Shown: one piece after another, positions 1-1,662 of the stretch
Position numbering within the stretch: position 1 is the stretch's first letter
Layout: each line of letters opens with the position of its first letter
Virus record (IMG/VR): IMGVR_UViG_3300045988_036476
Span: 1 to 41,677 of that record
DNA from: a virus
Strand: one strand, 5' to 3'
Length of the DNA stretch: 41,677 bases
Notes under the pieces: model-generated
What the model was told of the DNA's origin: nothing
What the model saw: the letters and a program-made list of their open reading frames with translations, nothing else
Databases searched by the model: none
Position numbers and translations under genes: made by a program

Positions 1-141
1 AGAAAAAGAGTTGGGCGAACGGCTCAAAAACGTTCGCGAAGTGCGCCGCATCAGTCAGTTTCGGCTTGGCGAAATGGCGGAATGCGAGGGGATAAGATGA
101 AGCACCTCGGTGATATTACGAAGATCAACGGCGCGGAGATC
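1..141. repeat. Left copy of the 141-bp terminal overlap
   Basis: agaaaaagagttgggcgaacgg...gcgcggagatc is identical to 41537-41677. It lies inside coding sequence (small HTH ORF plus the MTase start), so it looks like a circular-assembly overlap rather than cos or DTR ends. Confidence 0.9.
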
Positions 142-1662
142 GAAGTCGTGGACGTTATCACGGGCGGCTCACCGTGTCAGGATTTGAGCATTGCAGGGAA
201 ACGCGCCGGATTGGCCGGCGCAAGAAGCGGATTGTTTATGGAACAGGTTCGCATCGTAAAGGAGATGAGAGAACATGACAGAGCGAACGGACGGACAGGT
301 GACATGGTCAGACCTCGGTTTATGGTCTGGGAAAACGTGCCCGGAGCATTCTCAAGCAACAAAGGACAAGACTTCGCGGCAGTCCTCGAAGAGATTATCC
401 GCATCGCAGAGCCGGAAGCCCCCGATATTGAAGTGCCTGAAAAAGGCTGGAACACCTGGGGGGGCTACCACGATGAAGTGGGAGGACGATGGAGCGTGGC
501 TTGGAGAGTGCATGATGCGCAACACTGGGGAGTCCCCCAACGCCGCCGTCGTATCTCGATTGTCGCAGATTTTGGAGGAGACACCGCAGCCGAAATACTC
601 TTTGAGCGCAAAAGCGTGTCAGGGTATCTTGAGGAGAGCGGAGCGGCGCGGGAAAGACTTGCCGGAAACGCTGAAAGCGGTGCTTCTTATGCAGTCCGAA
701 TCAGGGGGGGCTGTGACGGAGGAGGAAAAGGTGCTTTAGTGCAGGAGGACAAGAGCGGCACGCTCGGCACCGGCAACGACCAGACGATTTTCTGCATGGC
801 GACGCAGCAAGGCGGGGCCGAGGTACGAGGCGATGACCGTGCACCGACCTTGACCGCTTCCGCAGGCATGAGCGGGAACAACCAGCCGGTTGTATGCGCC
901 GGGTTTAAGCTCGGCAACAGCGAGCAAGCGCGAAGCATCGGCTACGCCGAGGAACAAGCCCCCACGCTGAACGCGGAGTGTGGAGGTAACAAGCCCGCGG
1001 TCGTGGCACTGGATATGACACACGCTTGTGACATCATCCGCGAGTGTGGCGAGGTCGTTCCGAGTTTGCAAGCGAGAATGGGAACAGGCGGGAACCAAGT
1101 GCCGCTGACGTATCAAATGCAGGGCTTCGGCGATTACCGAGAGGGGGACGTTGCAAGCAGTTGCAAGCAACGGGACTTTAAGGACGGAACGGACCTTGTG
1201 TGTGCCGTCGATTGTCGGAACTTTTGCGAGGGCGGAGAAACAAACGGTACATTGCAAGCAAAAGAAAGCAGAGGGCAAAGCCTGAACCTGAATAATACAG
1301 TCCGGCAGAACATGGTGGTGCGCCGCCTTACCCCGATGGAGTGCGAACGGCTGCAAGGATTTCCAGACCACTGGACTGACATCGGCGAGTGGCGCGACAG
1401 TAAAGGCAAGCTCCGCGGCAGCGCGGACAGCCCGCGCTATAAGGCCTGCGGCAACTCGATCGCGCTGCCGTTTTGGGACTTTTTGGCAAAGCGCATCAGC
1501 GCGCAGTATTTGCGCCCCGTTACGATGGGGAGCCTGTTCGACGGCATCGGCGGATTCCCGCTGGTATTTGAGCGGCACAACGGCAAGGGCACGGCGCGCT
1601 GGGCAAGCGAAATCGAGCAGTTCCCGATCGCCGTGACGAAATTGAGATTTGGGGAGGAATGA
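97..1662 (+). CDS. DNA (cytosine-5) methyltransferase with non-canonical motif order (IV-VI-VIII-TRD-IX-X-I-II)
   Basis: GAGGGG RBS 6 nt before ATG 97. Motifs in order: GGSPCQDLS (nt 163-189), WENVPG (328-345), QRRRRISIV (~538), a ~250-aa variable region, RRLTPMECERLQGFP (1321-1365), GNSIALP (~1450). SLFDGIGGF (1531-1557) and SEIEQFP then follow at the C-terminus. Confidence 0.85.
   Translation: MKHLGDITKINGAEIEVVDVITGGSPCQDLSIAGKRAGLAGARSGLFMEQVRIVKEMREHDRANGRTGDMVRPRFMVWENVPGAFSSNKGQDFAAVLEEIIRIAEPEAPDIEVPEKGWNTWGGYHDEVGGRWSVAWRVHDAQHWGVPQRRRRISIVADFGGDTAAEILFERKSVSGYLEESGAARERLAGNAESGASYAVRIRGGCDGGGKGALVQEDKSGTLGTGNDQTIFCMATQQGGAEVRGDDRAPTLTASAGMSGNNQPVVCAGFKLGNSEQARSIGYAEEQAPTLNAECGGNKPAVVALDMTHACDIIRECGEVVPSLQARMGTGGNQVPLTYQMQGFGDYREGDVASSCKQRDFKDGTDLVCAVDCRNFCEGGETNGTLQAKESRGQSLNLNNTVRQNMVVRRLTPMECERLQGFPDHWTDIGEWRDSKGKLRGSADSPRYKACGNSIALPFWDFLAKRISAQYLRPVTMGSLFDGIGGFPLVFERHNGKGTARWASEIEQFPIAVTKLRFGEE

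Follow-up and report, generated by a model that had tools for sequence, protein, structure and literature searches.

A probable natural circular permutant of a DNA (cytosine-5) methyltransferase, and a conserved reading frame embedded in its gene, in a family of gut phages

Can a virus make use of the break point at which a DNA (cytosine-5) (C5) methyltransferase best tolerates circular permutation? Among ten engineered topologies, the one opened between motifs II and III ('Type B', represented by cp62M.MpeI and by cp58M.SssI) showed the highest activity, and it was not seen in REBASE (PMC5944983). The 27 natural permuted C5 enzymes found in the 2018 scan of that database all break in the variable region, with motifs IX-X before I-VIII (PMC5944983). 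Here, we describe the gene at positions 97-1662 of IMG/VR virus record IMGVR_UViG_3300045988_036476, which was analysed over its whole length of 41,677 nucleotides (the window). We put at about 85% the probability that this gene encodes a complete, unit-length, naturally circularly permuted C5 methyltransferase with a role in phage self-methylation.

Motif order of the methyltransferase

The gene and its motifs, as mapped with phmmer against M.HhaI and by alignment of relatives, are the following:

97-1662, plus strand: predicted circularly permuted C5 methyltransferase gene, 521 amino acids, order III/IV-VI-VIII-variable region-IX-X-I-II, stop codon TGA at 1660-1662
163-180, plus strand: motif IV GGSPCQ with the catalytic Cys27, invariant in alignments and aligned with the PCQ region of M.HhaI (residues 3-58, motif III/IV, match M.HhaI 57-112)
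331-345, plus strand: motif VI ENVPG, with E79, N80, V81 and G83 invariant
538-552, plus strand: motif VIII QRRRR, residues invariant (136-157 match M.HhaI 149-170)
679-1296, plus strand: variable (target-recognition) region, with five modules of the 'x[ST]Lx[AT]...G..N.P' type starting at about residues 216, 245, 284, 317 and 379
1321-1365, plus strand: motif IX RRLTPMECERLQGFP, residues invariant (406-427 match M.HhaI 269-290)
1450-1470, plus strand: motif X GNSIALP, with G452 and N453 invariant
1513-1527, plus strand: permutation junction, where the tail end of the motif X helix (RPVT) is directly fused to the kept ancestral start Met (ATG 1525)
1525-1659, plus strand: relocated N-terminal block with motif I SLFDGIGGFP (the loop that binds S-adenosylmethionine, AdoMet) and motif II WASEIE, recognised by phmmer, tblastn and conservation (477-520 match M.HhaI 14-55)

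The translation begins with MKHLGDITKINGAEIEVVDVITGGSPCQ, ends with ...AQYLRPVTMGSLFDGIGGFPLVFERHNGKGTARWASEIEQFPIAVTKLRFGEE and is 100% identical to a UniRef entry named 'Siphoviridae sp. ctfhy6'; the open reading frame (ORF) reported in the initial annotation is real, and every peptide quoted there was located in it. The Pfam profile PF00145 matches the protein with 132 bits (cut-off 22), the match being split over four stretches of which the best pairs residues 7-105 with profile positions 45-130, and TIGR00675 scores 124.7 bits, above its cut-off of 100.65. The set of C5 methyltransferase motifs I (FxGxG), II (acidic residue), IV (PCQ), VI (ENV), VIII (QxRxR), IX and X is complete and intact. 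What the Pfam and phmmer mapping does not recover is the canonical linear order from I to X.

No second copy of motifs I-II was found when canonical N-termini and the tail itself were searched by tblastn against all six frames of the 41.7-kb window. The only match lies at 1519-1659, with 68% identity (E = 5e-16) to the N-terminus of a canonical relative, so the initial annotation had not overlooked a normal N-terminal motif I. It was also right in reading ATG 1525 as the Met of 'VTMGSLFDG' and the tail as the likeness of an ordinary methyltransferase N-terminus (phmmer, tblastn). Starting the protein further upstream, at ATG 82 or at ATG 41513 (the 561-amino-acid call in UniRef, P0001), brings in no extra methyltransferase motif.

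The permutation becomes most evident when it is undone. A de-permuted sequence, made by placing residues 477-521 (the last 45) in front, matches PF00145 in a single stretch (3-145 to profile 5-130) with 145 bits, against 132 for the native order. Aligned with canonical relatives, it is collinear over its full length at 47-54% identity, with no motif absent and none duplicated. The profile match and the canonical alignment thus sustain the original proposal of a permutation broken between motifs II and III, whose rejoined ends give a standard enzyme. Residue 1 aligns to about residue 55-57 of M.HhaI and to the 'FPxM/KHLGD' position of canonical relatives (the slash marks the break). The protein therefore has what defines Type B: a new N-terminus between II and III, the old C-terminus and old N-terminus joined (...AQYLRPVT/MGSLFDG), and unit length.

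In the proposed enzyme, the chain would start at the II/III boundary with the catalytic half (PCQ, ENV, QRRRR), followed by a target-recognition region of several modules and by motifs IX and X. Without a linker, it would then pass into the AdoMet-binding strand-helix-strand of motifs I-II that normally opens the protein. Since the motif X helix packs beside motif I in the C5 methyltransferase fold, the three-dimensional fold should stay unchanged, and normal folding may be expected because engineered II/III permutants are highly active.

Distribution, selection and origin of the permuted order

The best 120 homologues (74-100% identity) cover the whole query, and many of them lie on viral contigs of 40-45 kb; those aligned all share the start MKHLGDITK and the end ...GSLFDGIGG...WASEIE..FPIAVTK.RF. 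Among the top 150 representatives of clusters at 50% identity, 116 are complete and permuted and 14 more contain the X-to-I-II junction (130/150); the same set holds 11 canonical proteins and four with the order X-I-II-III. Species-representative bacterial genomes yielded 27 permuted loci, mostly in Oscillospirales, and 49 canonical ones. Isolates carrying a permuted locus include Acutalibacter sp. 1XD8-33, Gemmiger sp. An87 and Intestinibacillus massiliensis. A permuted copy is also present in the cultured Faecalibacterium phage FP_Toutatis, whose annotation splits it into two 'DNA-cytosine methyltransferase' genes.

In an alignment at 47-59% identity, S479, L480, F481, D482, G483, F487 and P488 of motif I are invariant, as are W502, S504 and E505 of motif II. 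The diversity at third codon positions of the I-II block is 0.30 among 70 close relatives, like that of the rest of the gene, and the amino acids are kept; the relocated block is therefore under purifying selection. It has to be asked whether the gene could nevertheless be an inactive fused remnant, that is, a 5'-truncated pseudogene followed by the leftover 5' end of a second copy. Many prophage copies are indeed frameshifted. However, a remnant would hardly be expected to form a unit-length protein with no motif absent or redundant, to keep its motif I/II residues invariant across clusters at 45-60% identity, to vary freely at synonymous sites with its amino acids preserved, or to belong to a large and diverse family, and we consider this explanation very improbable.

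The ends of the contig deserve attention as well, because the place where it is cut coincides with the 5' end of the methyltransferase gene:

1-141 and 41537-41677, no strand assigned: direct terminal repeat of 141 bp, in identical copies
41322-41516: ORF of 64 amino acids upstream of the methyltransferase gene, with no motif I
41529-41636, plus strand: upstream ORF of 35 amino acids, resembling a helix-turn-helix (HTH) protein, whose TGA overlaps the methyltransferase ATG 97 (ATGA); no methyltransferase motif

Given this repeat, the contig represents a whole phage genome, circular or terminally redundant, with a unique length of 41,536 bp, and the true upstream sequence of the methyltransferase gene is therefore the end of the window. 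The 64- and 35-amino-acid ORFs are all that is found there, in agreement with the earlier statement that the region 41322-41636 encodes unrelated small ORFs and no motif I. The 35-amino-acid ORF looks like an XRE-type HTH domain cut to its first half, and may have remained at the rearrangement boundary as the truncated form of a controller-like gene.

An assembly artefact, in which the 3' end of a methyltransferase was misjoined to a 5' fragment or at the circularisation point, is effectively refuted: although the terminal repeat spans the 5' end of the gene and four database ORFs of the order X-I-II-III (P0126, P0213, P0220 and P0257) suggest possible chimeric assemblies in the family, the X-to-I junction at 1513-1527 sits 1.4 kb from the contig ends, the order of motifs within one gene cannot be changed by rotating a circular contig, and over 100 independent contigs, isolate genomes and a cultured phage all share the identical architecture. 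Its recurrence in isolates and in FP_Toutatis also settles in the negative the question, raised in the initial annotation, of a misassembly at the contig junction.

How the permuted order arose can be read from the two new boundaries. Across the II/III region, canonical relatives read '...VTK.RFPxM(K/L)H(L/V)GDITK...'. They thus have an internal Met in 'RFPxM(K/L)H(L/V)GDI', and this Met, internal in the ancestor, would be what became the permuted start codon. Canonical relatives begin with 'M..T[ML]GSLFDG', and this ancestral start persists at the junction as 'RPVTMGSLFDG'. Both features, a new start that is an old internal Met and an ancestral start Met that is kept, fit the tandem-duplication route suggested initially. 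The most likely origin is thus a canonical relative that underwent tandem duplication and in-frame fusion; the 5' copy would then have been trimmed to the pre-existing internal Met and the 3' copy trimmed after motif II. In a neighbour-joining tree (160 columns) built to look for a single origin of the permuted clade, 25 of the 27 permuted loci group with one canonical locus, in a bipartition without resampling support.

The four ORFs of the order X-I-II-III read variable region-IX-X-I-II-(2 amino acids)-III-IV and so combine the permuted and the canonical junction in one chain. They may be natural tandem or fusion intermediates or chimeric metagenome assemblies. The same order was seen in none of 58 related IMG/VR loci, and no tandem intermediate was confirmed.

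A second reading frame and poly-G tracts within the gene

The methyltransferase gene contains more than its own frame. Beyond what the initial annotation had described, it holds an embedded ORF in the +1 frame (ORF B), two poly-G tracts and a modular variable region. The features concerned are:

258-268, plus strand: Shine-Dalgarno-like AAGGAG (259-264) and frame-B stop TGA (266-268), just upstream of the B start ATG 275
275-739, plus strand: ORF B, 154 amino acids, +1 frame of the methyltransferase gene, overlapping methyltransferase residues 60-214
458-464, plus strand: poly-G tract 1 (G7), within both reading frames
704-710, plus strand: poly-G tract 2 (G7), 29 nucleotides before the stop of ORF B

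The AAGGAG lies 10 nucleotides ahead of the B start codon, and a Shine-Dalgarno-like motif precedes the first frame-B start codon in 64 of 75 loci. Frame B is open for 131-160 codons in all of the about 83 loci examined (permuted, canonical, P1 dmt and Streptococcus phage Javan261), and the +2 frame is closed in them. Measured against synonymous shuffles, the openness of frame B at a single locus is weak (p = 0.16 for the window). Three other observations lead us to conclude that B is under purifying selection, namely its conservation, the suppression of synonymous variation and a flip in codon periodicity. In a codon alignment of 76 diverged loci, the frame-B identity over methyltransferase residues 126-185 is 0.54, against 0.25 in shuffled sequences (maximum 0.256), and upstream of ORF B it equals the null. 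Over residues 167-192, frame-B columns are 0.9-1.0 identical (KY.LS.KAC.GIL.RA..RGK.LP..L) and methyltransferase-frame columns 0.1-0.5. Among close relatives, the diversity at synonymous sites is 0.06-0.12 in the overlap versus 0.24-0.40 elsewhere (Mann-Whitney p = 7e-17). Finally, the diversity at the three methyltransferase codon positions is 0.33/0.20/0.63 upstream of B and 0.59/0.34/0.24 at residues 170-192, where the wobble position is therefore that of frame B; in between, at residues 153-169, values of 0.31/0.22/0.31 show that both frames are constrained. B is thus conserved and under purifying selection across the methyltransferase family, P1 dmt included, and the overlap is a case of dual coding.

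By tblastn, B is found in 137 phage records, and in P1 and Javan261 it is the +1 frame of the annotated methyltransferase gene. Gene callers have called it thousands of times as a hypothetical protein of 130-165 amino acids. On one contig in which the whole gene is readable (L166), B is embedded within a full methyltransferase ORF. Sequence and profile searches against Pfam and PDB sequences gave no match for B, and Foldseek found nothing in the PDB with E <= 0.001 for its model. That AlphaFold model, built on an alignment of database matches, has a mean confidence (pLDDT) of 62; a C-terminal helical hairpin is confident and the N-terminal part is disordered. A likeness of B to the hinge that follows motif VIII in Dcm was also considered; it is not supported, the Foldseek, sequence and profile searches being empty. 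The most economical reading is that B would be translated and act as a partner or regulator of the methyltransferase.

The two G tracts add a further layer. Runs of at least seven G or C occur three times in the whole window, and two of them lie inside the methyltransferase gene. Tract 1 is G7 in 56 of the 80 closest relatives on viral contigs. All 80 of these contigs, a set chosen for full-length matches, are in frame, with G7 or an interrupted tract. Elsewhere, the tracts differ in length: one locus (L003) is frameshifted by a G8 at tract 1, and four are frameshifted at tract 2, by G8 (L017, L022 and L028) or G9 (L053). When a single G is added, the methyltransferase frame closes and B becomes continuous with the sequence downstream; in L022 and L028, the result is a 425-amino-acid B-variable region-IX-X-I-II protein. 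With two Gs added or one lost, the methyltransferase frame continues into B, as in FP_Toutatis (G9 at tract 1). Canonical relatives are mostly without G tracts.

A homopolymer inside a gene whose length differs between related genomes and sets the frame is what is looked for in phase variation, and this is what is found here. The G tracts fit a hypermutable on/off or isoform switch, and we regard them as candidates for phase variation. Sequencing error or the simple decay of prophage copies could likewise account for the differences in tract length.

It is possible, though we would not expect it, that the working enzyme needs B as a subunit or, after a slip in a G tract, consists of a split pair (III-VIII plus B-variable region-IX-X-I-II). 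B is under purifying selection and co-inherited with the methyltransferase family from P1 to Clostridia phages, a confident hairpin with a disordered N-terminal part is what a chain folding on a partner may be expected to look like in a model, and M.EcoHK31I offers a precedent (PMC2836561). For the split pair, it can be argued that G8 at tract 2 fuses B in frame to the recognition half in L022 and L028. However, the main frame holds every canonical motif, including IX, no likeness of B to a methyltransferase of solved structure was detected, the G tracts are absent from most canonical relatives, and the 80 closest viral contigs, selected as they were for full-length matches, are all in frame. 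A more elaborate version of this idea, which we offer tentatively as a rather doubtful one, is a coding device in two layers. An obligatory partner or regulator would be overprinted in the +1 frame of the catalytic core throughout this widespread methyltransferase family, P1 dmt included, and the Oscillospirales phage lineage would have added the permutation and slippery G tracts, which would switch heritably between a single chain, a split form (III-VIII plus B-variable region-IX-X-I-II) and an off state.

Other relatives are interrupted in different ways. In 25 of 224 fetched loci, the gene reads GGTGGTTCACCTTGT-TAG[A/C]-CAGGA, with an in-frame stop and one extra base directly after the catalytic Cys codon (candidate +1-frameshift sequence: GGTGGTTCACCTTGTTAGACAGGA). 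The +1 frame is open to the normal C-terminus in 16 of the 25, in at least three diverged lineages. The 25 loci include L167-L170, L172, L183, L189, L192, L199, L200, L217, L218, L223 and L224, near locus position 4075-4086, and also L002; the insertion may reflect programmed +1 frameshifting or recoding. The window sequence is normal at its catalytic Cys codon, without this insertion. Inteins of 260-355 amino acids (Hint, Intein_splicing, LAGLIDADG) interrupt P0183, P0173 and P0137 at PC/Q or ENV/PG. The Mycobacterium phage Schatzie (L083; MK524521, 66364-67887) has an HNH endonuclease gene inside the homologous methyltransferase, annotated 'coding region not determined; unable to determine intron boundaries'; interrupted family members therefore exist in cluster J mycobacteriophages. 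L002, from a Clostridia metagenome-assembled genome, contains an insert of about 2.7 kb (locus positions 1271-4001) just after the ENV motif; possible identities are an intron, an intein and a mobile element.

Phage setting, proposed function and comparison with known systems

The window encodes an integrase, a replication initiator, a DnaC-like loader, a Holliday junction resolvase, a terminase and a portal protein, and the methyltransferase gene is located between the replication and packaging modules. The source is a temperate, siphovirus-like gut phage. Its host probably falls within the Oscillospiraceae; the closest bacterial loci are those of Oscillibacter and other Oscillospiraceae. Another long, putative ORF of the window (1819-2955, plus strand) has a repeat rich in Gly, Tyr, Ser and Asp at about 2240-2470 (GSGYGSGYGDGSGYG...), whose opposite strand reads as an Ala/Val repeat.

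Relatives with a backbone 85-95% identical are 503-775 amino acids long and differ by whole-module insertions or deletions in the variable region only (proteins P0023-P0119 were compared). This suggests a rapid shuffling of specificity cassettes, and the several modules suggest that the enzyme could have several target specificities and methylate several motifs. In Bacillus temperate phages, several target-recognition domains are likewise arrayed in one polypeptide (PMC12707154). The most likely substrate of the methyltransferase is the phage's own DNA, modified at one or several motifs, and host restriction would thereby be evaded; no restriction enzyme gene was recognised near the methyltransferase gene.

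A main role other than anti-restriction, in packaging, in epigenetic control of lysis and lysogeny or in supplying 5-methylcytosine as a substrate for further modification, appears unlikely to us. Replication cycles can be under the control of orphan phage methyltransferases, and methylation of the P1 pac site requires dmt (PMC12707154). However, recognition modules are exchanged like cassettes between backbones that are nearly identical, a pattern expected from an arms race with diverse restriction systems. Among the ORFs scanned, in a search of the window that was not exhaustive, none was noticed that looked like a TET gene or another gene of downstream modification.

Several points weigh against a permuted single-chain enzyme acting in phage self-methylation. 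The authors of the 2018 study considered that Type B permutants might bind AdoMet less well in vivo (PMC5944983). The AlphaFold model of the full protein, based on an alignment of 14 near-identical homologues, has a pLDDT of 31.6 and is uninformative. Frameshifts, mostly at G tracts, affect 11 of the 27 permuted loci found in bacterial genomes, and many prophage copies are therefore off or working as split proteins. The embedded ORF raises the possibility that the single chain may not be sufficient alone.

Natural permutation of C5 methyltransferases is known from plant DRM2, and in this the window protein resembles it. DRM chains matched the motif IV of our query near their own C-terminus (phmmer). 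The plant DRM break lies between motifs V and VI, and these eukaryotic enzymes have UBA domains and are targeted by RNA.

Bacillus phages (SPR, phi3T, rho11s and SPbeta) have multispecific enzymes, which are orphan methyltransferases of temperate phages with several recognition modules per polypeptide (PMC12707154); the five putative recognition modules of the TL type give the window protein a similar make-up. The Bacillus phage enzymes differ from it in having the canonical motif order, whereas the window protein is permuted. Permuted and split methyltransferases serve as scaffolds for targeted methylation, and multi-module phage enzymes are a source of new specificities.

In M.EcoHK31I, as is proposed for the window gene, a second polypeptide is encoded in another frame of the C5 methyltransferase gene (PMC2836561). 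Its beta chain, which the enzyme needs, supplies motif IX, whereas motif IX of the window protein is in the main frame and B has no recognised motif. Of the two hallmarks of the M.EcoHK31I type, the window gene thus has the conserved ORF in the other frame and lacks the embedded chain that carries the missing motif. In M.AquI, the alpha and beta ORFs overlap. ORF B would be an unrecognised gene in a family that includes the model phage P1, which makes it directly testable in a tractable system.

Among permuted bacterial enzymes, those of Type H (the natural enzymes of the 2018 scan include M.BssHII, M.Alw26I, M2.Eco31I, M.Esp3I and M2.BsaI; PMC5944983) are, like the window protein, natural permutations with motif X before motif I. 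Their break falls in the variable region, a position at which the window protein does not start; it is broken between II and III, and its two structural domains are not kept as blocks. The statement in the initial annotation that M.BssHII has a different break point, with IX-X preceding I-VIII, agrees with the 2018 REBASE listing (PMC5944983).

The closest counterparts are laboratory proteins. [quoted passage not shown] The group-1 M.HaeIII permutants (Peisajovich et al. 2006), as far as they are summarised in PMC5944983, belong to the same topology class. Our literature searches, in which REBASE itself was not queried, turned up no paper describing a natural Type B permutant or the embedded ORF. 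[quoted passage not shown] The 2018 study had remarked that nature seems not to use the best-tolerated II/III break, and this puzzle would be removed by an architecture that is abundant and selected in gut phages. Natural Type B enzymes are now on hand for testing the idea of an in vivo penalty in AdoMet binding, and the junction offers a clean natural example of permutation via duplication, fusion and trimming at pre-existing start signals. The engineered Type B and M.HaeIII permutants were made in the laboratory, whereas the window protein occurs naturally, as a member of a large phage family, and its variable region is long and made up of several modules.

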